From IMG/VR virus record IMGVR_UViG_2648501797_000006, positions 1 through 24,757 of that record: a stretch of DNA of 24,757 nt; one strand, written 5' to 3'. Position 1 is the first letter of the stretch; each line of letters begins with the position of its first letter. This stretch comes from a virus (lineage: Duplodnaviria; Heunggongvirae; Uroviricota; Caudoviricetes). The notes beneath the pieces were generated by a model. The model saw nothing but the letters and a program-made list of their open reading frames with translations, was not told where the DNA came from and searched no databases. Made by a program: the position numbers and the translations under genes. Below, one piece after another: positions 4,625-24,757 of the stretch.

Positions 4625-6104
4625 TCATCGGGTCGGACATGTTGGTGTAGTTCTGAATGATGGTGATGGGATTCAGGTCTTCATCAGCAAGGTCATGTGA
4701 CAGCCCGGTCGCCCCGAAGGGGTCGATGGGTGACTCGCTGACCGGGCTGATTTTGTTCGCTGCTTTGGCCTCTTCGAGGATGTAGCGATAATCCACCTCT
4801 GCACCATCGGTAACGGTCAGGACGCCCATTTCCACCCATTTCTGAAAGCGTTCGGCTGTCCGGCGATCTTCATTTTTCTCGACGCTGTACACCGTGTCAT
4901 ACGGTACCCAGAAACGCGGGGCCACACTGTAGTAATGCGTTTTACCGTCAATCTCGCGGGTATAAAGTCGCGCCATGCTGTTCATATCCAGCTTACGCGC
5001 CAGGTCAAAGGCCAGAATGCACGGCTGCCCCTCGAACTGCTCAAGGGTCAGTGATTTATCCTCGCAGCTCTGCCAGCTCACCAGGTTGAAATACGCCGAA
5101 CGCGCCGACACCCAGATATTGAGGTGTTTTGTTTTAAAGACGTTTGCCAGACGGGCGTTATTTTTCGCACGCTGCTGCTGACTTAACAAAAATTCGCGAT
5201 AAACCGACACGCCAATATTTGGATTGGCTTTTTCCAGCACCTGCGGGTCGGTCCAGTCGTCACCTTCATCAACGGTATAGATGATCCCGAACAGTTCATC
5301 GTTGGGCACCGAGCCGTTGAGCATCTCGATGACTTCCCGCCGCTTGTCGTAGCACGGCCCCTCAATGTTGTACCCGGCAGTAGTAATGGCCCACATCAGT
5401 GGCTGACGTCGCGCCCCCATCCCGGTAAGCATCGTGGTGTAAAGCGCATCGGTGGCGTGCTCGTGATATTCATCCACCACCGCACAGTGGGGTGATGATC
5501 CATCACCGGGGTTACCGATCAGCGGTTCAAACCGCGCGCCATCCTCCGGACGGTTCATGTTTGAGGCGTTAACCTCAATCCCGAACGCTTCCGTCAGCAT
5601 GGGCGTGCGTTTACACATCAGTCGCGCCGGGCGAAAGACTTCCCACGCCTGTTTCTCTGTCGTGGCACCGGAATACACTTCCGCGCCAAACTCGTTATCA
5701 CAGGCAAAACAATACAGGGCGACACCGGCAGAGATTGCCGATTTGCCGTTCTTACGGGGGATTTCGGTATACACCTCCCGGAAGCGGCGCAGCCGGGAGC
5801 CTTTATTGACCCAGCCAAACGCACAGCAGATCACAAAGAGCTGCCACGGCTCCAGCGTGATGGGCATCCTCTTGAATGCCCACTCACCCTTGGTGTGCGG
5901 CAACAGCTGAATAAATTTGGCGGCTCGTTCAGCCAGGTCCTTGTCGAAGCGGTAACGAAACGACTTACTTTTTTCCGCCATCAGGTCATCAAGATGGCGC
6001 TGGCAGGCCTGAATCACAAACTGGCAGGCCACAATCTTTCCGCGAAAGACATCCCGGGCATACTGATTGGCAGCATTTACGTTGGGGTAAGATTTCCGGC
6101 TCAT
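4605..6104 (-). CDS. Terminase large subunit (Terminase_1-like, 499 aa)
   Basis: 499-aa frame; its ATG overlaps the TerS stop as ATGA (6101..6104). Placed after HNH and TerS as in HK97-type packaging modules. Confidence 0.85.
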
Positions 6105-6595
6105 GATTCGATGATTTTCAGAAACGGGTTAGTAGCTTTCTTCTGCCCCGCCAGGCCAATCAGACGCTGGCGGCTGCTGGGGTCGAGTCCGAGCATTGCC
6201 CCCGTGCTGCTCATCTCGGACTCCTGTTCTTTTTTGGCGGTCAGCTCAGGATTTTTGACCATACCGCCCATTGCACCGGTGATGGTGTTGCCCTGTCTGG
6301 CAATATTTTTCACGGCACGTCGCCAGAACTCATAGGCCACACACCACCGCTCAAGCACCGCGAGGTCAGTCACGCACAGCAGGCCCTGACCGCAAAGTTC
6401 TTTAGTTGTCAATTGCCACATGATCGTGGCGAGAGGGAGATCTTCTTCAGCGAACCACTCCGGTGGCTCAACACCTTTGATGGGCGTAAAAACAGGTTCA
6501 TCTTTATTCAGGGCTCGCTTGCCGGGGTTTCCGGCCAGCGCCTTGCGCGCCGTTGGCTTGGGGCGACGCCCGGAACGCCCCGCCGTTCCAGCCAT
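6101..6595 (-). CDS. Terminase small subunit (P27-like)
   Basis: Basic N-terminus [27 protein letters not shown]...; ATG at complement 6593..6595 with GGAG 8 nt upstream (the track used an upstream GTG). Directly upstream of TerL. Confidence 0.7.
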
Positions 6596-6720
6596 ATGCG
6601 GCACTCCTGGTTAAATTTCATTTTTCGCGGGTATAAAAAAACGATGGGGCGGGCAGTCCTGAAGACGTCAGGGTACAGAGATTTGACCCGCCCCTCCCCT
6701 CTGGCAGTGGGAACTGGTTC

Positions 6721-7071
6721 TTACTTCAGCCGTTCACGGGCCGTCTTCGCCTTATGACACGGCCAGCACAAACTCTGCAGATTACTGTCGACATCAGTGC
6801 CGCCATGCGATTTAGGGATGATGTGGTCAACGGTCTTCGCCTCACGCACCACACCAGCACGCAGACATAACTGACACAGGCCTTTGTCACGCTTCAGGAC
6901 ACGCGCGCGGATACTTTCCCACTTCGAACCGTAGCCGCGCTGATGACGGGATTGTCCAGGTTTGTATTGCTTCCAGCCTTCGCTTTTGTGGCTTTCGCAG
7001 TAGCCTGAAGGGTCCGTGGTTGTAGAGCGGCAGCCGCGAACACGGCAGGCTTTTGGGGTTCGTGGGGGCAT
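6721..7071 (-). CDS. HNH endonuclease (packaging-associated)
   Basis: Cys/His pattern C..C...HIIPKSHGGTDVDSNLQSLCWPCH typical of phage HNH proteins next to terminase genes; GGAG 6 nt before the ATG. Confidence 0.8.
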   Translation of the reverse strand: MPPRTPKACRVRGCRSTTTDPSGYCESHKSEGWKQYKPGQSRHQRGYGSKWESIRARVLKRDKGLCQLCLRAGVVREAKTVDHIIPKSHGGTDVDSNLQSLCWPCHKAKTARERLK

Positions 7072-9261: not shown

Positions 9262-10314
9262 TTATTTCCCCACCAGTTCACTTACCTCTTTCACCGTCTG
9301 ATTAAACCGCTCTGACTCAAGTTCAACACCTAACGCCCGACGCCCCAGCGCCATTGCTGCTTTTATTGTGGAACCGGATCCCATAAAGAAATCAGCAACC
9401 AGATCACCAGGTCGACTACTGGCATTGATTATTTGCCGGAGCATATCCGCCGGTTTCTCGCACGGATGTTTACCCGGGTAGAACTGAACGGGCTTATGCG
9501 TCCAGACATCGGTATAAGGCACAGAGACTGATACGGAGAAATAGCGCCGGAGAGATTTAAACTCATCCAGCAATTCAGAATATTTGCGATTCAGTGAATC
9601 ATAAGATGCCACCAGCTGGTGGTGTGGTTGTTCCAGTTGTTGTTCCTGAAACTTCTCTGCCGCTATACGGGAAAACAGTGCCTGTAACTTCCGATAGTCA
9701 GCCTCATTCGGCAACTGCCACTGACTGGCACCAAACCAGTGGGAAACCATATTTTTCTTATCTGTGGCTTCGGCAATTTGTTTTGCCGTTATACCCAGTT
9801 CGGCACGAGCATCCCTGAAATACGATATCAGCGGTGCCATTATGTGCTGTTTGAGTTCCCTTTCTTTTGCCGCATAGTCGTCACTTTTGCCGCGATATGG
9901 CCCCTGGTAATGTTCAGCAAACAGAACGCGCTCTGTGGCAGGAAAATATGCGCGCAGACTTTCTTTATTACACCCATTCCAACGTCCGGACGGCTTCGCC
10001 CAGATGATATGGTTAAGCACGTTGAAACGTTCACGCATCATGATCTCAATATCAGATGCCAGGCGATGCCCACAGAACAGGTAAAGGCTTCCGGCAGGTT
10101 TTAACACCCGCCAGAACTGGGCCAGACAGTGGTCCAGCCACTTAAGGTAATCTTCGTCCCCTTTCCACTGATTGTCCCAACCGTTAGGTTTCACTTTGAA
10201 GTAAGGCGGATCGGTAACAATCAGGTCAATGGAATCATCAGGCAGGGACTGAATAAAATGCAGGCAATCAGCGTTGATTAAATCAACACTGTTTATTTTT
10301 ACAGTATTTTTCAT
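9262..10314 (-). CDS. Orphan DNA methyltransferase (DPPY motif, beta-class N6-adenine or N4-cytosine)
   Basis: IVTDPPYF near the N-terminus and SAM-binding FFMGSGST near the C-terminus (motif IV before motif I). No partner endonuclease recognised nearby. Confidence 0.85.
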   Translation of the reverse strand: MKNTVKINSVDLINADCLHFIQSLPDDSIDLIVTDPPYFKVKPNGWDNQWKGDEDYLKWLDHCLAQFWRVLKPAGSLYLFCGHRLASDIEIMMRERFNVLNHIIWAKPSGRWNGCNKESLRAYFPATERVLFAEHYQGPYRGKSDDYAAKERELKQHIMAPLISYFRDARAELGITAKQIAEATDKKNMVSHWFGASQWQLPNEADYRKLQALFSRIAAEKFQEQQLEQPHHQLVASYDSLNRKYSELLDEFKSLRRYFSVSVSVPYTDVWTHKPVQFYPGKHPCEKPADMLRQIINASSRPGDLVADFFMGSGSTIKAAMALGRRALGVELESERFNQTVKEVSELVGK

Positions 10315-17528: not shown

Positions 17529-17625
17529 ACGCCCTCCAAACTAAGTTTTATTAGATGCTAATTACAAATCTATCTTTGGTCAATAAAAACTAAGATTACT
17601 TAGCAATTCAAGAAATGGTGCTCCT
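17529..17625. promoter_or_regulatory. Divergent immunity-region promoter/operator (OR-like)
   Basis: 97-bp gap between cro-like and cI-like genes with two AACTAAG motifs in near-palindromes: ctaagttttattag (17541..17554) and ctaagattacttag (17590..17603). Candidate leftward -35 TTGACC (complement 17579..17584) and -10 TAGCAT (complement 17555..17560). Confidence 0.55.
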
Positions 17626-18252
17626 ATGGAAACGGTTGGTCAGCGTATAAAAGCTCTGAGAAGAGTTACCGGAACGTCCCAGAAAGAATTGGGTAAATTT
17701 TGTGGAGTAAGCGACGTTGCTGTGGGGTACTGGGAGAAAGACATCAATACCCCTGGTGGGGAGGCACTTTCGAAATTAGCGAAGTTCTTCAATACGTCAA
17801 TAGATTACATTCTTTATGGTGCTGAGTTTGAAGGCAAACTCGTCACAAACATGCGCAGAGTTCCTGTAATATCGTGGGTTCAGGCTGGGCAGTTTACTGA
17901 GTGCAGGGCAGCAGAAGTGTTTAGTGAAGTGGACAAGTGGGTAGATACATCATTAAAGATTGGTGATAACTCATTTGCATTAGAGGTTAAAGGTGACTCC
18001 ATGACTAACCCTAATGGCCTCCCAACAATACCAGAAGGCGCAACAGTGATTGTAGATCCAGATGCAGAACCTCGTCATGGAAAAATAGTCATCGCTCGAC
18101 TTGATGGAACAAACGAAGCTACAGTAAAAAAATTAGTCATCGATGGCCCTCAAAAGTTTTTAGTGCCATTAAATCCTCGGTATCCCAACATCCCTATCAA
18201 TGGTAATTGCCTTATCATTGGTGTAGTCAAAGGAGTTCAATACGAACTCTAA
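17626..18252 (+). CDS. cI-like prophage repressor (HTH-XRE plus S24 LexA-like peptidase domain)
   Basis: N-terminal HTH (QKELGKFCGVSDVAVGYWE) and C-terminal autocleavage domain with GDSM serine and a downstream lysine (VKKLVIDG). Confidence 0.85.
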   Translation: METVGQRIKALRRVTGTSQKELGKFCGVSDVAVGYWEKDINTPGGEALSKLAKFFNTSIDYILYGAEFEGKLVTNMRRVPVISWVQAGQFTECRAAEVFSEVDKWVDTSLKIGDNSFALEVKGDSMTNPNGLPTIPEGATVIVDPDAEPRHGKIVIARLDGTNEATVKKLVIDGPQKFLVPLNPRYPNIPINGNCLIIGVVKGVQYEL

Positions 18253-18420
18253 GACCTCTCTTCTCTAACTAAGGCACCGAACTAAGAAAAGTTTGGTGTT
18301 TTCTCTTGCCATAATAACTAAGTTAAGTTAGATTTTATATCAAAGATAACGAACAGGCAGGACGCCCACGAAGTAGCCGCCTGGGGCATATGAAGTCCAG
18401 GATGATTCGTTGAGTCATGT
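18253..18420. promoter_or_regulatory. Candidate second operator cluster (OL-like) downstream of cI
   Basis: Three more AACTAAG copies at 18267..18273, 18280..18286 and 18316..18322 (the last followed by ttaagttag). Confidence 0.35.
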
Positions 18421-18458
18421 TGTGCCACCAGGCACTCATGTTAAAGCAGGTGTATGAA

Positions 18459-18734
18459 ATGAAAGTCCAGATTTTAAACAATAACTGTGAAGTCGTTTGG
18501 TCATACGACATAGCCGCCCCTGTAGATCAGAGCGGCGATAGCTGGACCAATGGGAAACATCAGATTATGGCTGGAGTTGTGTTCTCTTTACGCCGTGCTT
18601 TGGAACAGGCTGAAGTATTTCCATCAGACCCTGAATGGAAATGGCCTTTTTCTATTTGTCCAAATTCGGAGAGCACATTTCAGAAAATTGGTCAGAAAGT
18701 CGCACTCGAAGAGCATCAGCCAACTGTTTCCTGA
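18459..18734 (+). CDS. Hypothetical small protein downstream of cI (rex/sieB-equivalent position)
   Basis: ATG at 18459 (MKVQILNNNCEVVW...) with a weak AGG upstream; its 3' end overlaps a convergent ORF and reads less protein-like there. Confidence 0.3.
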   Translation: MKVQILNNNCEVVWSYDIAAPVDQSGDSWTNGKHQIMAGVVFSLRRALEQAEVFPSDPEWKWPFSICPNSESTFQKIGQKVALEEHQPTVS

Positions 18735-18897
18735 TTTTTTCAGGTAACTCGTCGGCATCGCAGAAACAACAACGCTCGATCATGTTGAAAGCCGATTCGT
18801 AGAACTGTTTCTGCTGAGTGTCGCTGAGACAGGAAAAGAGCGACGTTACGATGATTTTATTAATTGCATTATCAAGTTCTTTTTCATCAAAAGTCAT
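18652..18897 (-). CDS. Hypothetical small protein (81 aa), convergent with and overlapping the previous ORF
   Basis: AAGGAAAA 7 nt before ATG (complement 18895..18897); MTFDEKELDNAINKII...; no family recognised. Confidence 0.4.
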   Translation of the reverse strand: MTFDEKELDNAINKIIVTSLFSCLSDTQQKQFYESAFNMIERCCFCDADELPEKIRKQLADALRVRLSDQFSEMCSPNLDK

Positions 18898-19129
18898 TTG
18901 ATTTTCCTTTTATGTATACGGGCTTAAAAGGATACCACCGAGCCTGAAGTGGTGAAAAGACAGGCACATAACAGCTAAGTATTTTCAACCAGAGAGAATC
19001 CTTAGCGTTGTGGTGAATGCGGCTCAGCGCACGCGGGTTAAGGTTGAGGCTGACAGTCGACCTTCTGTAGATACCCACCCGCCTGGTGTGCAACCTTCGC
19101 CAGGCACCGGGAGGCACCCGGCACCACAA

Positions 19130-19197
19130 CTTTATGCTGTGTGTAGTCCTGGCGGTACCAGTTTGTACCCTTGCTTCCGGCTGGTACCGCTCTTTTT
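19130..19197 (+). ncRNA. Candidate DicF-like small RNA with an intrinsic terminator
   Basis: In a ~440-bp gap with no convincing ORF: perfect 10-bp stem gcggtaccag (19152..19161) / ctggtaccgc (19181..19190), 19-nt loop, then tcttttt. The segment ggcggtaccagtttgtaccc resembles the DicF core as recalled (ggcggtatcagttttactcc). 5' boundary not determinable. Confidence 0.35.
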
Positions 19198-19334
19198 ACA
19201 AAACAGAGAAGAGCATCACCGGACGACGGGCTCATAACCCAATCCATCCGGGCGGCTGCCACCGCAGGTGTTCTTCTCTGTTTTGTGGAGAAACTAATCG
19301 GCCTTGCAGGGTCGATATGATGAGGAGCAGCAAA

Positions 19335-19697
19335 ATGGCTAGCGAACGCAGTACTGATGTGCAGGCATTTATCGGGGAGCTGGACGGCGGCGTATTTGAA
19401 ACCAAAATCGGCGCAGTTCTCAGTGAAGTCGCTTCCGGTGTGATGAACACGAAAACCAAAGGTAAGGTCTCACTCAACCTGGAAATCGAACCATTTGATG
19501 AGAACCGTGTGAAAATCAAACACAAACTCTCATATGTTCGCCCGACTAACCGCGGGAAAATTTCCGAAGAAGACACCACCGAAACGCCGATGTATGTCAA
19601 TCGCGGTGGTCGCCTGACTATTCTGCAGGAAGACCAGGGACAATTACTGACTCTTGCCGGTGAACCTGACGGAAAACTCCGCGCAGCAGGTCATTAA
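19335..19697 (+). CDS. yfdP: YfdP-like protein (120 aa)
   Basis: GAGGAG 7 nt before ATG 19335; the track's upstream extension is GC-rich structured sequence. Assigned by length and position ahead of yfdQ/yfdR-like genes. Confidence 0.5.
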   Translation: MASERSTDVQAFIGELDGGVFETKIGAVLSEVASGVMNTKTKGKVSLNLEIEPFDENRVKIKHKLSYVRPTNRGKISEEDTTETPMYVNRGGRLTILQEDQGQLLTLAGEPDGKLRAAGH

Positions 19698-19762
19698 TAT
19701 CGTTCTTAATTAACTGATTATTTATCTCATCACTGAATATCTTTATATAGTGAGGACTTATT

Positions 19763-20587
19763 ATGTCTCAGAACTTAGACGCAACCGCAATTAATCAAAT
19801 CCATGCCCTTATTTCTGCTCAGGGTGTTAATGAAATTATCAGTAAGATTGGTGCCGATGCTGTGGCATTGCCTGAGAATTTCCGCATTCATGATCTGGAA
19901 AAATTTAATTTAAATCGCTTCCGTTTCCGTGGTGCGCTTTCCACTGCCAGCATCGATGACTTTACCCGTTATTCTAAAGATCTTGCAGATGAAGGCACCC
20001 GCTGCTTTATCGATGCTGATAATATGCGTGCCGTCAGTGTGCTTAACCTGGGTACTATTGATGAACCAGGTCACGCAGATAACACCGCCACTCTCAAACT
20101 GAAAAAGACAGCACCGTTCTCTGCTCTGTTGTCTGTTAATGGCGAGCGTAACTCCCAGAAATCACTGGCAGAATGGATTGAAGACTGGGCCGACTACCTT
20201 GTGGGCTTTGATGCTAATGGTGACACCATTCAGGCAACAAAAGCGGCTGCGGCGGTCCGTAAAATCACGATTGAAGCAAACCAGACCGCTGATTTTGAAG
20301 ATAATGACTTCAGCGGCAAACGCTCCCTGATGGAGTCTGTCGAAGCGAAGACCAAAGACATTATGCCAGTGGCATTTGAATTTAAATGCATTCCGTTTGA
20401 AGGTCTGAAAGAACGTCCGTTTAAATTACGCCTCAGCATTATCACTGGCGATCGTCCGGTACTGGTTCTGCGCATTATTCAGCTGGAGGCGGTGCAGGAA
20501 GAAATGGCTAACGAATTTCGTGATCTGCTTGTTGATAAATTCAAGGACAGCAAAGTAGAAACCTTTATTGGTACTTTCACCGCCTGA
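19763..20587 (+). CDS. yfdQ: YfdQ-like protein (DUF2303 family, 274 aa)
   Basis: 274-aa ORF with a good RBS (gtgaggactt before ATG); length and neighbourhood match the CPS-53 yfdPQRST module as recalled. Confidence 0.7.
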
Positions 20588-20598
20588 TTTCATTACTG

Positions 20599-20624
20599 CA
20601 AATGCCCCTGCGGGGGCATTTATG
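20599..20624 (+). terminator. Candidate hairpin terminator after the yfdQ-like gene
   Basis: ATGCCCC-tgcg-GGGGCAT perfect 7-bp stem (20602..20619) followed by ttat; short T-run so strength uncertain. Confidence 0.4.
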
Positions 20625-20714
20625 GAAACGTAATTTACTCAATAATCGCCGGATGGTGAGGGATTCTTTTTACCAGAATTCAGCGCGGTGCAGCGCATAT
20701 ACGTGGAGAACAAA

Positions 20715-21251
20715 ATGTCATTTATTAAAACTTTTTCCGGGAAGCATTTTTATTATGACAGGATAAATAAAGACGACATCGATATTAACGATATCGCGGT
20801 TTCCCTTTCAAATATCTGTCGCTTTGCCGGTCATCTTTCGCACTTCTACAGCGTCGCCCAACATGCGGTTCTTTGCAGCCAGCTGGTGCCGCAGGAATTT
20901 GCTTTTGAAGCGTTAATGCATGATGCAACAGAAGCGTATTGCCAGGACATTCCCGCACCACTGAAACGCCTTCTTCCTGACTATAAACAAATGGAAGAAA
21001 AAATAGACTCCGTAATCCGTGAGAAATACGGATTACCCCCAGTTATGAGTACGCCCGTGAAATATGCCGATCTCATCATGCTGGCAACCGAACGCCGCGA
21101 TCTCGGGCTTGATGATGGCTCTTTCTGGCCTGTACTGGAAGGTATCCCGGCAACAGAGATGTTCAACGTGATTCCACTGGCACCGGGCCATGCCTACGGG
21201 ATGTTTATGGAACGCTTTAACGAGTTATCGGAGTTACGCAAATGCGCATGA
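20715..21251 (+). CDS. yfdR: YfdR-like HD-domain phosphohydrolase (178 aa)
   Basis: GGAG 6 nt before ATG 20715 (MSFIKTF...); candidate metal-binding His/Asp residues (HFYSVAQHAV...MHDATEAY); length equals recalled YfdR. Confidence 0.7.
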   Translation: MSFIKTFSGKHFYYDRINKDDIDINDIAVSLSNICRFAGHLSHFYSVAQHAVLCSQLVPQEFAFEALMHDATEAYCQDIPAPLKRLLPDYKQMEEKIDSVIREKYGLPPVMSTPVKYADLIMLATERRDLGLDDGSFWPVLEGIPATEMFNVIPLAPGHAYGMFMERFNELSELRKCA

Positions 21252-21604
21252 ATGTTTTCGAAATGGAAGGGTTTCTTCGTGGGAGATGTGTACCGCGAGA
21301 TCTGAAAGTAAATGAAACAGATGCTGAATACCTGGTGCGTAAATTCGATGCGCTTGAAGCTAAATGTGCAGCACAGGAAAACAAAGTAATACCAGTGTCA
21401 ACTGAACTGCCACCAGCAAATGAAAGTGTTTTGTTATTCGATGCTAACGGAGAAGGCTGGCTAATTGGCTGGCGTTCTCTCTGGTACACCTGGGGACAAA
21501 AAGAAACCGGAGAATGGCAGTGGACATTTCAGGTCGGGGACCTTGAAAACGTCAATATCACTCACTGGGCAGTAATGCCAAAAGCACCGGAGGCTGGAGC
21601 ATAA
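21242..21604 (+). CDS. yfdS: YfdS-like protein (120 aa)
   Basis: Start overlaps the yfdR-like stop; length and order match recalled YfdS. Confidence 0.55.
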   Translation: MRMNVFEMEGFLRGRCVPRDLKVNETDAEYLVRKFDALEAKCAAQENKVIPVSTELPPANESVLLFDANGEGWLIGWRSLWYTWGQKETGEWQWTFQVGDLENVNITHWAVMPKAPEAGA

Positions 21605-21909
21605 TGACCACTTTTACCGACAAAGAACTGATTAAAGAAATTAAAGAGCGTATCAGCAGCCTTGACGTGCGAGACGATATTGAGCGCCGTGCTTATGAAA
21701 TCGCACTCCTATCTCTGGAAGTAGAACCAGATGAACGCGAAGCTTATGAATTATTCATGGAAAAGCGTTTCGGTGACTTAGTAGATCGTCGGAGAGCAAA
21801 AAACGGCGATAACGAATACATGGCATGGGATATGACTCTCGGTTGGATCGTCTGGCAGCAACGAGCTGGTATCCATTTTTCAACAATGTCACAGCAAGAG
21901 GTGAAATAA
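21604..21909 (+). CDS. yfdT: YfdT-like protein (101 aa)
   Basis: Start overlaps the upstream stop as TAATG (21602..21606); length and order match recalled YfdT. Confidence 0.55.
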   Translation: MTTFTDKELIKEIKERISSLDVRDDIERRAYEIALLSLEVEPDEREAYELFMEKRFGDLVDRRRAKNGDNEYMAWDMTLGWIVWQQRAGIHFSTMSQQEVK

Positions 21910-22259
21910 TGGAGCCATACAGCCTCACACTCGATGAGGCCTGTCATTTTCTCAAGATATCCAGACCGACTGCCATTAACTGGATACGCACAGGGCGTCT
22001 TCAGGCAACACGCAAAGATCCCACTAAGAATAAATCTCCTTACCTCACAACACGACAAGCCTGCATTGCGGCTCTTCAGTCTCCGCTGCATACTGTCCAG
22101 GTGAGCGCGGGTGATGGCATAACAGAGGAAAGAAAATGTCACTCTTCCGCAGAGGTGAAATATGGTACGCCAGTTTCACATTGCCGAACGGTAAAAGATT
22201 TAAACAGTCTCTTGGAACAAAGGACAAAAGGCAGGCGACAGAACTCCATGACAAGCTAA
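21909..22259 (+). CDS. Excisionase/AlpA-like DNA-binding protein (xis candidate)
   Basis: AAGAGGTGA before ATG 21909, which overlaps the upstream stop as TAATG. N-terminus [31 protein letters not shown] is an AlpA/Xis-type HTH. The 3' 124 nt overlap int in another frame, so the functional protein may be shorter. Confidence 0.5.
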
Positions 22260-23299
22260 AGGCTGAAGCATGGCGGGTCAGCAAACTTGGTGAAATACCT
22301 GATATAACGTTCGAGGAAGCATGTGTCAGGTGGCTTGAAGAGAAAGCACATAAAAAATCACTGGACGATGACAAAAGCCGGATCGGATTCTGGCTTCAAC
22401 ATTTCGCAGGAATGCAACTAAGAGACATTACTGAATCAAAAATTTATTCAGCAATGCAGAAAATGACGAACCGGCGTCATGAGGAAAACTGGAGACTCAG
22501 GGCAGAAGCATGCAGAAAAAAAGGGAAACCTGTTCCAGAATACACGCCAAAACCAGCGTCCGTTGCAACGAAGGCTACGCATCTTTCATTTATAAAGGCC
22601 CTACTAAGAGCCGCAGAGCGTGAATGGAAAATGCTGGATAAGGCACCAATTATTAAAGTGCCTCAACCAAAGAATAAACGGATCCGCTGGCTGGAGCCCC
22701 ATGAAGCACAAAGGCTGATTGATGAATGTCCGGAGCCATTAAAGTCTGTTGTTGAATTTGCACTGGCAACAGGCTTAAGACGCTCGAACATCATCAACCT
22801 TGAATGGCAACAAATAGACATGCAGCGCCGGGTGGCATGGATAAACCCGGAAGAGAGTAAATCAAACCGCGCAATTGGCGTTGCGCTGAATGATACTGCA
22901 TGTCGCGTTTTGAAAAAACAAATCGGGAATCATCACCGTTGGGTATTTGTGTACAAGGAAAGCTGTACCAAACCAGACGGAACGAAAGCGCCAACAGTAA
23001 GGAAGATGCGGTATGACGCAAACACAGCCTGGAAAGCGGCGCTGAGACGGGCTGGTATTGATGATTTCAGATTTCACGACTTGAGACACACCTGGGCAAG
23101 TTGGCTGGTTCAAGCCGGAGTCCCGTTGTCAGTGTTACAGGAAATGGGAGGCTGGGAGTCTATCGAAATGGTTCGTCGATATGCTCACCTTGCACCTAAT
23201 CACCTTACCGAACACGCACGGCAAATAGACTCGATCCTGAACCCATCGGTCCCAAATTTGTCCCAATCAAAAAATAAGGAAGGTACTAATGATGTGTAA
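22136..23299 (+). CDS. int: Tyrosine recombinase (phage integrase, 387 aa)
   Basis: AGGAAAG before ATG 22136; C-terminal catalytic region with ...[42 protein letters not shown] (R, H-x-x-R, Y). Ends 15 bp from the tRNA 3' end. Confidence 0.9.
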
Positions 23300-23313: not shown

Positions 23314-23389
23314 TGGTGCCGATAATAGGAGTCGAACCTACGACCTTCGCATTACGAATGCGCTGCTCTACCAACTGAGCTATATCGGC
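23314..23389 (-). tRNA. thrW: tRNA-Thr (anticodon CGU), 76 nt with encoded CCA
   Basis: Reverse complement reads GCCGATATAGCTCAGTTGGTAGAGCAGCGCATTCGTAATGCGAAGGTCGTAGGTTCGACTCCTATTATCGGCACCA: D-loop AGCTCAGTTGGTAGAGC, anticodon loop TTCGTAA, T-arm GGTTCGACTCC. Confidence 0.9.
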
Positions 23390-23503: not shown

Positions 23504-24757
23504 TTACGCACGAATGGTGTAATCACCAATGCCGATCCACTTGTAAGTGGTCAGTGCTTCCAGCCCCATTGGGCCACGCGCGTGGAGTTTTTGTGTGCTT
23601 ACCGCCACTTCCGCACCCAGACCAAACTGGCCGCCGTCGGTAAAACGCGTAGAGGCGTTAACGTAAACAGCGGACGAATCCACTTCGTTAACAAAACGCT
23701 GGGCGTTGCGCATATCGCGGGTCAGGATCGCATCGGAGTGTTGTGTGCCGTGTTCACGAATATGGGCGATGGCATCGTCAAGATCGCTGACGATTTTGAC
23801 GTTCAAATCTAATGACAGAAACTCATCGTCATACTCTTCGGCTTTAACAGCAACCACCTTCGCAGGGCCTGCCTGCAACTGCGCCAGTGCAGCTGCATCT
23901 GCGTGTAATGTCACGCCGCTTTCCGCCATTTGTTTGCTTAATGCGGGCAGGAAGCTATCGGCGATGTTTTTATTCACCAGCAACGTTTCAACCGTATTAC
24001 ATGTGCTCGGACGCTGAGTTTTCGCGTTGACGATCACTTTTAATGCTTCAGCGATCTCTACACTTTCATCAACGTAAATATGGCATACGCCTATACCACC
24101 TGTGATCACCGGGATTGTCGACTGTTCACGGCACAGTTTATGCAAACCAGCGCCACCACGCGGGATCAGCATGTCGATGTATTTATCCATACGCAGCATT
24201 TCACTGACCAGCGCACGGTCAGGATTATCAATCGCCTGCACGGCACCCGCCGGTAAGCCGCAGGATTTCAGGGCGTCCTGAATCACCGCCACCGTTGCAG
24301 CGTTAGTGCGACACGTTTCTTTGCCACCGCGCAGGATCACCGCATTACCGGTTTTCAGGCACAGCGAAGCGACATCAACCGTCACGTTCGGGCGCGCTTC
24401 ATAAATCACGCCAATAACCCCCAGCGGTACGCGACGACGCTCAAGACGCAGGCCGCTGTCCAGTACGCCGCCATCGATTACCTGCCCCACCGGATCGGCG
24501 AGGTTACACACCTGGCGCACATCGTCGGCAATGCCTTTCAGCCGTGCGGGCGTCAGTGCCAGACGGTCAAGCATCGCTTCGCTAAGGCCGTTGGCACGCG
24601 CGTCAGCAACATCCTGCGCGTTAGCGTTGAGGATGATTTCGCTTTGTGCTTCCAGTTCATCGGCTATTTTTTCCAGTACGCGATTTTTTTCGCGGCTGGA
24701 GAGTTGCGCTAATTTATACGAGGCTTGCTTCGCGGCAATGCCCATTTGTTCCAGCAT
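23504..24757 (-). CDS. proA: Gamma-glutamyl phosphate reductase ProA (417 aa, start codon at the window edge)
   Basis: [38 protein letters not shown]... is E. coli ProA as recalled; stop at 23504..23506. Confidence 0.95.

Follow-up and report, generated by a model that had tools for sequence, protein, structure and literature searches.

The closest described relatives of the genes considered here are yfdP-yfdT of the E. coli K-12 element CPS-53 (KpLE1; b2359-b2363) and orf32-orf28 of phage SfV, the SfV-like block being grouped with those of SfIV, SfII, mEp460 and Stx2c phages. Among complete E. coli genomes, approximately 70% have the yfdPQRST genes, and genes of the yfdP/yfdQ/yfbR type are commonly carried by lambdoid early-left operons (PMC12315714). 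The sole experimentally documented activity of the block is a DnaA-mediated inhibition of host replication initiation (PMC4776307). In multicopy, yfdQ and yfdR combined with yfdS or yfdT block initiation at oriC: they inhibit initiation in the wild type and suppress the over-initiation of hda-185, dnaAcos and seqA mutants, yfdQ being required for the K-12 replication-inhibition phenotype and yfdP dispensable (PMC4776307). YfdR binds domain I of DnaA and is pulled down by DnaA, with Phe46 of DnaA important for this binding, and DiaA and DnaB compete with YfdR for DnaA; stable binding of YfdQ, YfdS or YfdT to DnaA or YfdR was not detected (PMC4776307). All these functional data come from the overexpressed K-12 copy, replication is unaffected when yfdQRST is deleted, and a possible artefact is conceded by the authors of the study (PMC4776307). 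Later reviews and papers accept the YfdR-DnaA mechanism.

In the window, that is, the whole 24,757-nt stretch of viral DNA analysed, yfdPQRST belongs to a lambdoid prophage of the SfV type inserted at thrW; cro, cI, xis, int, thrW and proA were detected around the block (Table 1). As judged by sequence comparison, its genes hardly differ from the catalogued yfdP-yfdT of E. coli and Shigella lambdoid prophages. The earlier note had described five co-directional genes spanning 19335-21909, and the ORF calls reproduce their boundaries and lengths to the base. Its description of them as tightly packed holds for R, S and T, which overlap by 10 nt (R/S) and 1 nt (S/T), and less so for P, Q and R, which are separated by +65 nt (P/Q) and +127 nt (Q/R). 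The correspondence in length and order that it had proposed with the CPS-53 cluster is borne out by an ungapped protein comparison, in which 119/120, 269/274, 173/178, 115/120 and 97/101 residues of YfdP, Q, R, S and T, respectively, are identical to K-12. All five proteins match profiles strongly (PHROGs 204/210/318/583/660, E 1e-31 to 1e-120; for YfdQ also Pfam DUF2303, E 2.9e-91), and these ORFs are therefore real genes and not chance occurrences. An identical stretch in RefSeq NZ_CP158323.1 already carries the names yfdP, yfdQ, yfdR, 'phage protein' and yfdT and, given also the published phenotype, the block as flagged is already known.

Table 1. Coordinates of the features in and around the yfdPQRST block (positions in the window).
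Feature	Coordinates	Strand	Description
cI	17626-18252		upstream of candidate PL
Candidate PL promoter	18280..18334	+	TTGCCA-17-TAGATT at 18306-18334; overlapped by operator-like repeats
STnc100-like prophage sRNA candidate	18977..19199	+	ends in terminator-like hairpin 19152-19161/19181-19190 and U run
Conserved three-way-junction leader RNA	19198..19286	+	covariation-supported; just upstream of yfdP
Leader P1	19198-19217/19267-19286	+	closing stem, 20 bp
Leader P2	19219-19223/19247-19251	+	encloses invariant core GACGGGCTCATAACCCAATCCA (19225-19246)
Leader P3	19252-19255/19262-19265	+	
Fourth small hairpin	19299..19314	+	CGGCC/GGGTCG stem, loop UUGCAG; between conserved linker GGAGAAAC and yfdP ribosome-binding site
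yfdP	19335-19697	+	120 aa; probable member of YfdP family PF27127; ATG start within longer GTG ORF
yfdQ	19763-20587	+	274 aa; DUF2303/PF10065
yfdR	20715-21251	+	178 aa; HD-domain protein, putative phosphohydrolase (5'-deoxynucleotidase family); K-12 orthologue binds DnaA (PMC4776307)
yfdS	21242-21604	+	120 aa; mosaic N-terminal ~50 aa and C-terminal DUF551 domain
yfdT	21604-21909	+	101 aa; PHROG 660; N-terminal ~50 aa common to other PHROGs
xis	21909..22259	+	HTH_17 excisionase; alternative start 21825; next gene in same operon
Tyrosine integrase	22136..23299	+	attachment site at tRNA-Thr(CGU) thrW follows
thrW tRNA-Thr(CGU)	23314-23389	-	followed by proA

The block is superimposable on that of CPS-53, with the same five genes in the same order, orientation and lengths (96-99% protein and 95-99% nucleotide identity), and order and orientation also agree with SfV, the block occupying the integrase-proximal end of the lambdoid prophage. 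The two settings are nevertheless different. CPS-53 is a decayed element at argW in which the block is followed by the excisionase remnant ypdJ and which has lost all sequence beyond approximately 25 nt upstream of yfdP, and with it both the STnc100-like RNA and the leader structure, whereas the SfV-type prophage at thrW retains cI, cro, xis and int. SfV itself is closer, with 99.7% nucleotide identity over 19000-22300, 120/120, 273/274, 176/178, 120/120 and 101/101 identical residues in the five proteins, and identical downstream xis-int and thrW attachment. However, the window differs from SfV, in a mosaic-like manner, throughout much of its remaining length and in the immunity region (cI/cro/operators). 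SfV covers only 45% of the window.

Within the early-left operon yfdPQRST lies distally, just upstream of xis-int. The early-left unit would run from cI and the candidate PL through orf33, the STnc100-like RNA, the structured leader and yfdPQRST to xis and int. We propose the candidate PL on the basis of its position downstream of cI and of its operator-like repeats (ACTAAG-N-TTAG), which recur between cro and cI (17534-17554, 17583-17603). Since they lie downstream of a candidate CI-controlled promoter, the yfdPQRST genes are probably silent in the lysogen and would be expressed on infection or induction. A terminator-like hairpin separates the candidate PL from yfdP and makes PL-driven transcription of the block a tentative assignment. 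The stretch annotated in RefSeq as a frameshifted hypothetical protein (18977..19199) matches the full STnc100 model (Rfam RF02076, 1-206) with E 3.5e-8 and 44.8 bits against a gathering score of 47, and it goes unreported in gathering mode.

The HD-domain member pointed out in the earlier note is YfdR, and at the positions that could be aligned the loss of conserved HD residues, which would have spoken against the note's reading, is not seen. The protein has H50, H69-D70, E73 and D78. Its metal-binding motif (HDAxE...D) aligns with that of YfbR (PDB 2paq; identity approximately 23%), H69-D70, E73 and D78 corresponding to H68-D69, E72 and D77, and these residues, as well as H50, align with Atu1052 of A. 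tumefaciens (PDB 2gz4), which matches residues 19-175 with E 9e-14. D119 is probably the final Asp metal ligand. Profile scores fall below gathering for Pfam YfbR-like (25.1 vs 25.9 bits) and HD_3 (17.4 vs 22.5) and below threshold for the NCBIfam 5'-deoxynucleotidase model (20.4 vs 122); PHROG 318, 'deoxyribonucleoside 5' monophosphate phosphatase', matches with E 4e-110, and the RefSeq product name is 5'-deoxynucleotidase. The start may also be the GTG at 20688, giving 187 aa, and the allele differs from K-12 by five substitutions (R16K, D23V, Q92R, S99A, E170D; 5/178). According to the account in PMC4776307, which cites Zimmerman 2008, K-12 YfdR is unlike YfbR in that its affinity for nucleotides is far weaker and in that it binds DnaA non-enzymatically. 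The same account gives the dNMP phosphatase activity of the K-12 orthologue as weak, and the YfdR described here, with its HD motif intact, probably retains such a weak activity.

Two enzymatic roles have to be weighed. The earlier note had suggested that the HD protein could deplete nucleotides and affect competing phages. That it does so in the lysogen, thereby protecting against such phages, is highly improbable: its sole support is that defence enzymes which deplete nucleotides are known in general and that the protein has an HD fold, but the family is annotated as 5'-deoxynucleotidase, a dNMP phosphatase acting on monophosphates and not a dNTPase; no PADLOC-DB defence model, nucleotide-depletion enzymes included, was hit at E<=0.01 by any of the five proteins or by two neighbouring ones; the operon is probably repressor-controlled, its genes being probably silent in the lysogen; and many virulent phages carry the same HD protein family. 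Alternatively, YfdR could be, in its true role, a phage dNMP phosphatase that reshapes or disposes of deoxynucleotide pools during lytic growth, the binding of DnaA being a side effect of overproduction. We regard this as unlikely. The 5'-deoxyribonucleotidase of phage T5 is a precedent for a phage dNMP phosphatase acting on deoxynucleotide pools. The aligned HD residues, the PHROG 318 match and the RefSeq name are in keeping with such a role, and the occurrence of YfdR-type HD proteins in 333 phage records, from hosts as diverse as Bacillus, Caulobacter and Rhizobium, in many phyla and independently of YfdP/YfdQ, suggests a conserved enzymatic function rather than DnaA binding. However, deletion of yfdR left the CMP yield unchanged in an engineered strain (PMC10870394), and an enzymatic YfdR leaves unexplained why yfdQ and yfdS/T are needed for the replication phenotype.

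Based on the above data, we favour as reasonably probable a mechanism in which this prophage block, orthologous to that of CPS-53 and to SfV orf32-orf28, acts in host-replication takeover. YfdR would bind domain I of DnaA at the Phe46 surface that is used by DiaA and DnaB and, acting with YfdQ plus one of YfdS and YfdT, would block initiation at oriC. For the copy described here, DnaA binding and the oriC block are inferred from the 96-99% identical K-12 orthologues.

The distribution of the five genes shows that the block is modular. YfdQ covers nearly the whole of Pfam DUF2303 (PF10065; residues 7-272 aligned to profile positions 2-269 of 269), a family with 3922 50%-identity representatives at E<=1e-3, of which the best 150 of 3922 are single-domain proteins of 249-290 aa. 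YfdP matches PHROG 204 (E 1e-49) and has no match in the Pfam copy searched, whereas PF27127 is the precomputed assignment of homologues that are 99% identical to it. YfdS matches DUF551 (PF04448) marginally, at 22.2 bits against a cut-off of 22 over residues 50-117, and PDB sequence searches with YfdP, YfdS and YfdT gave nothing below E 0.1. In 6/6 distant phages the yfdP and yfdQ genes are adjacent, next to RecT-Exo in phiON-2011, ERF-YqaJ-SSB in a Xanthomonas phage, and SSB with a protein annotated as DNA polymerase III subunit epsilon in a Vibrio phage. The 80 IMG/VR loci among the YfdQ matches listed are all 99-100% identical and hence informative for recent mosaicism only; among the contigs with near-identical YfdQ, P-Q-R are present together in 74/74, S in 59/74 and T in 48/74. 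YfdP-YfdQ is thus an ancient two-gene cassette found beside recombination/replication genes in distant phages, YfdR is joined to it only in enterobacterial lambdoid phages, and YfdS and YfdT are exchangeable 'ea-type' mosaics.

This arrangement raises the possibility, to our minds a somewhat unlikely one, that YfdP-YfdQ is a DNA-metabolism device independent of YfdR, working in DNA-end binding, in annealing or as a recombination/replication accessory. It would account for the adjacency of the pair, next to recombination/replication genes, in every phage examined, and ORF and profile searches detect no canonical recombinase in the early-left operon of the window. The weak MMS and H2O2 sensitivity caused by yfdQ deletion (PMC4776307), the invariant charged residues and the PGHAD and EDW motifs, and a YfdQ homologue in PDB entry 9o7m, which has 36 chains, point in the same direction. 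On the other hand, no annealase, SSB or nuclease resembles the YfdP and YfdQ models in fold, and a search of PDB libraries with the AF2 model of YfdQ (pLDDT 85) gave no related fold; moreover, the phages that carry the cluster include some with a full Rec module and some that lack one (PMC12315714).

The leader upstream of yfdP is, apparently, an undescribed conserved RNA structure. In its alignment, 94.4% of cells are paired, as opposed to 37-53% in slid controls, compensatory changes occur at 9 pairs, and no Rfam family matches. RNAalifold also places a helix at the fourth hairpin (columns 130-133/151-154), which has compensatory changes in other phages. In other phages the leader precedes yfdR, rdgC or a holin gene. 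Fourteen nucleotides of its core, 19227-19240 (CGGGCTCATAACCC), match exactly the anticodon stem-loop of E. coli initiator tRNA-fMet. The core is not a tRNA gene, as ARAGORN calls only thrW and the Rfam tRNA model finds no match at E<=10; nor is it an attP-type tRNA fragment, as identity to tRNA-fMet ends after 14 nt. A BLAST match labelled 'tRNA-Arg' (Klebsiella phage) corresponds to sequence directly after the tRNA and not to the tRNA itself. The leader was likewise rejected as a copy of HK022 put, from which it differs in architecture; it is present once in the window, and a comparison with 8 kb of HK022 revealed no counterpart.

A more speculative proposal, which we consider quite unlikely, is that this uncatalogued RNA, which presents the anticodon stem-loop of initiator tRNA (GGG-CUCAUAA-CCC) in an invariant 22-nt loop, serves as a tRNA-fMet mimic, as a put-like processive antiterminator or, where long phage operons begin, as a processing/stability element, while, separately, YfdP-YfdQ forms a large DNA-metabolism machine of a new kind, built as a homo-oligomer (36 chains, 9o7m). 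VapC-type toxins are anticodon nucleases that cut initiator tRNA. A mimic could be a decoy for such nucleases, or a site for a factor that reads the anticodon arm (MetRS, IF3, the 30S P site). The leader could also be a cis-regulator, its CAU loop pairing with a downstream AUG. If functional, a leader with an initiator-tRNA-like loop would represent a new class of regulatory or counter-defence RNA in enterobacterial temperate phages.

With regard to host-replication takeover, the window shows in an intact, probably repressor-controlled setting a block otherwise studied only in its decayed K-12 copy. Telling the old YfdP-YfdQ cassette apart from YfdR, which was attached later, and from the exchangeable S/T may guide the understanding of why yfdQ is needed for replication inhibition.

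An initiator-binding block of initiation, as described for K-12 YfdR, is also known for the lambda P protein, which binds DnaA domain III, and for B. subtilis SirA, which binds domain I (PMC4776307). SirA and YfdR use an equivalent surface of DnaA, Phe49 and Phe46, respectively (PMC4776307), but both lambda P and SirA are unrelated to YfdR in sequence and fold, and YfdR requires partner genes in vivo. The leader finds its closest counterpart in the put RNA of HK022, a cis-acting antiterminator RNA located just downstream of PL and PR. Like put, it is a structured, conserved RNA near the start of a lambdoid early-left transcript; other phages have it near the start of the late transcript. put, however, comprises approximately 70 nt in two side-by-side stem-loops and occurs as a putL/putR pair (PMC9378689), whereas the leader is a three-way junction with a 20-bp closing stem; we place it outside the put class and hypothesize that it may share a put-like function.

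The five plus-strand ORFs that the earlier note had singled out as a yfdPQRST-like block were found exactly so, 5' of the integrase and excisionase genes, and they are real genes because every one has strong family matches. Their naming is also correct: in a residue-by-residue comparison, YfdP, YfdQ, YfdR, YfdS and YfdT are identical to their counterparts in the E. coli K-12 cryptic prophage CPS-53 at 119/120, 269/274, 173/178, 115/120 and 97/101 positions, and to orf32 to orf28 of Shigella phage SfV at 120/120, 273/274, 176/178, 120/120 and 101/101. A RefSeq stretch that is 100% identical (E. coli 123636) is annotated yfdP, yfdQ, yfdR (5'-deoxynucleotidase), 'phage protein' and yfdT. Positions 19000-22300 are matched in 3882 of 5426 complete E. 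coli genomes (1329 at 80% of the length or more) and in 178 phage records, among them SfV, SfIV, mEp460 and Stx2c phages; the whole window is a mosaic lambdoid prophage, of which any single phage record covers about half at most. The yfdPQRST block is a set of catalogued, widespread and already known prophage genes, whose published mechanism rests on overexpression. At the far side of yfdT in K-12, ypdJ (10182-10235 of the K-12 locus, L003) is 92.6% identical to the first 54 nt of the window's xis region and therefore looks, by sequence, like a remnant of an SfV-type excisionase.

Features of the yfd block and its surroundings
Feature	Position	Strand	Description
Operator-like repeats ACTAAG-N-TTAG	17534-17603 and 18280-18334		both sides of cI
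Sigma-70-like promoter site	18306-18334		3' of cI; points into orf33 and the yfd block
ORF	18417-18734	+	SfV orf33; full-length match to phrog_3195, unknown function
ORF	18652-18897	-	full-length match to phrog_3311, unknown function
STnc100-like prophage sRNA candidate	18977-19199		full-length match to Rfam RF02076
Three-way-junction leader RNA	19198-19286		core 19225-19246; directly 5' of yfdP
Small fourth hairpin	19299-19314		directly before the ribosome-binding site
yfdP	19335-19697	+	120 aa
yfdQ	19763-20587	+	274 aa
yfdR	20715-21251	+	178 aa
yfdS	21242-21604	+	120 aa
yfdT	21604-21909	+	101 aa
HTH_17 excisionase (xis)			adjoins the integrase, inside proA/tRNA-Thr
Tyrosine integrase	22136-23299		directly inside proA/tRNA-Thr
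tRNA-Thr(CGU)	23314-23389	-	window end
proA	23504-24757	-	window end

The K-12 block was isolated in multicopy as a suppressor of hda-185, an over-initiating mutant (Noguchi and Katayama, PMC4776307). Suppression needs yfdQ, yfdR and either yfdS or yfdT, with yfdP dispensable, and extra copies of these genes likewise inhibit initiation in dnaAcos, seqA and wild-type cells (PMC4776307). YfdR is the protein that DnaA pulls down, a binding for which Phe46 of DnaA domain I is important; deletion of the K-12 genes gives no phenotype, and the authors concede that overexpression could mislead (PMC4776307). They proposed a role in the takeover of host replication, by analogy with lambda P (PMC4776307), and later literature regards YfdR as a prophage-encoded domain-I inhibitor. 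In the window, the ACTAAG-N-TTAG repeats overlap the promoter-like site and recur between cro and cI, making this a candidate OL/PL. From the location of the block 3' of cI, together with a promoter-like site bearing repeats of the cro-cI type, we infer that a CI-repressed PL transcript would run through the yfd block to xis-int. The block would then be expressed early in lytic growth, which would fit host-replication takeover by this prophage. Compared with SfV, the immunity region is different, yet the yfd block is 99.7% identical. The two ORFs between cI and the block are convergent and overlapping, and RefSeq annotates only the plus-strand one.

YfdR is indeed the HD-domain member proposed earlier. 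It retains H50, H69-D70, E73 and D78; the HDAxE...D stretch aligns with H68-D69, E72 and D77 of YfbR, and the HD protein Atu1052 (PDB 2gz4) matches residues 19-175 (E 9e-14) with H50 aligned too, so the assignment is not undone by loss of HD residues. YfdR scores slightly below the thresholds of the Pfam HD models and matches PHROG 318 (dNMP phosphatase) with E 4e-110. The accompanying speculation, that nucleotide depletion might act against competing phages, is without support: a PADLOC search of the block proteins gave no matches to defence-system models, annotation of the family gives monophosphates as its substrates, the nucleotide affinity of the K-12 enzyme is reported to be low (PMC4776307), and a lysogen probably does not express the block genes.

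YfdQ is a DUF2303 protein over its full length by profile match. That family has 3922 representatives at 50% identity; the 150 best of these consist of a single domain and are 249-290 aa long. Among 51 diverse homologues, PGHAD (residues 102-106; window about 20066-20080), EDW (residues 140-142; about 20180-20188) and E46, R54, R56, Q132 and R166 are invariant or nearly so, a pattern that would suit a metal-binding or a catalytic site. The solved structure of a homologue, PDB 9o7m, for which a literature search found no publication, holds 36 chains in a single entry and suggests a very large homo-oligomer. YfdP belongs to the newer family PF27127; its predicted structure consists of one long helix and then a meander of three strands, and a structural comparison of the model gave no informative neighbour. 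YfdS has a marginal DUF551 match in its C-terminal part, and the N-terminal ~50 residues of YfdS and YfdT also occur in further PHROG families, as mosaic 'ea-type' proteins would be expected to show.

A YfdP homologue lies directly 5' of YfdQ in all six distant phages compared (Xanthomonas MET23-P3-like, Citrobacter phiNP, Stx2a phage phiON-2011, Thalassomonas BA3, Vibrio 75E35.1 and Acinetobacter Mystique), next to RecT-Exo, ERF-YqaJ-SSB, or SSB together with a protein annotated as DNA polymerase III subunit epsilon. Xanthomonas phage OK913680.1, the source of the 9o7m homologue, has the pair in its early operon, followed by ERF, YqaJ and SSB (5571-6825 of its locus, L004). Enterobacterial lambdoid phages, phiNP and LLS among them, are the only ones in which the pair is followed by a YfdR homologue. 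Conversely, HD proteins of the YfdR type are found in 333 phage records that span many host phyla. Among IMG/VR contigs with near-identical YfdQ, P-Q-R is present in 74/74, S in 59/74 (often as its N-terminal part only) and T in 48/74. Given this conservation against the variability of S and T, the 'five-gene module' is a conserved P-Q(-R) core with exchangeable S/T, and the YfdP-YfdQ cassette, with its unexplained large oligomer structure, is worth carrying forward.

So is the RNA directly 5' of yfdP. Its core, GACGGGCTCATAACCCAATCCA, is invariant, occurs once in the window where none is expected by chance, and turns up in 119 or more IMG/VR contigs as well as in 32 species-representative genomes, nearly all of them from Enterobacterales. 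The leader folds as a three-way junction with strong covariation support: across 32 distinct sequences, 94.4% of cells are paired versus 37-53% with the partner slid, the covariation score is 0.180 versus at most 0.072 (0/500 shuffles as high), and compensatory changes are seen at nine pairs, one example being GC to CG in 13 sequences. RNAalifold independently recovered the outer stem, third stem and fourth hairpin. Fourteen core nucleotides (CGGGCTCATAACCC) reproduce the E. coli initiator tRNA-fMet anticodon stem-loop exactly, down to its three G-C pairs; despite this identity, a tRNA search gave no match and we rejected the leader as a tRNA. The leader stands 5' of yfdP in 172 instances, elsewhere directly before yfdR or an RdgC homologue, and in phages of Klebsiella, Raoultella and Pantoea there is a second class, located 3' of Q and tRNA genes and 5' of a holin gene. 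No Rfam 15 family matched the leader and a literature search found no paper containing the core; this leader RNA with its initiator-tRNA-like loop is uncatalogued.

Upstream of it, the STnc100-like candidate scores 44.8 bits, slightly below the threshold of 47 (E 3.5e-8), and its end is a terminator-like hairpin with a U run. In RefSeq, 19010-19320 is a frameshifted pseudogene (hypothetical protein). Of 80 near-identical IMG/VR loci, 77 have the candidate segment, full or at least partial, alongside yfdP. Both RNA elements lie 5' of the block (19335-21909) in the same transcription unit, and whereas the K-12 CPS-53 block has lost the STnc100-like RNA and the leader RNA, the window has both.
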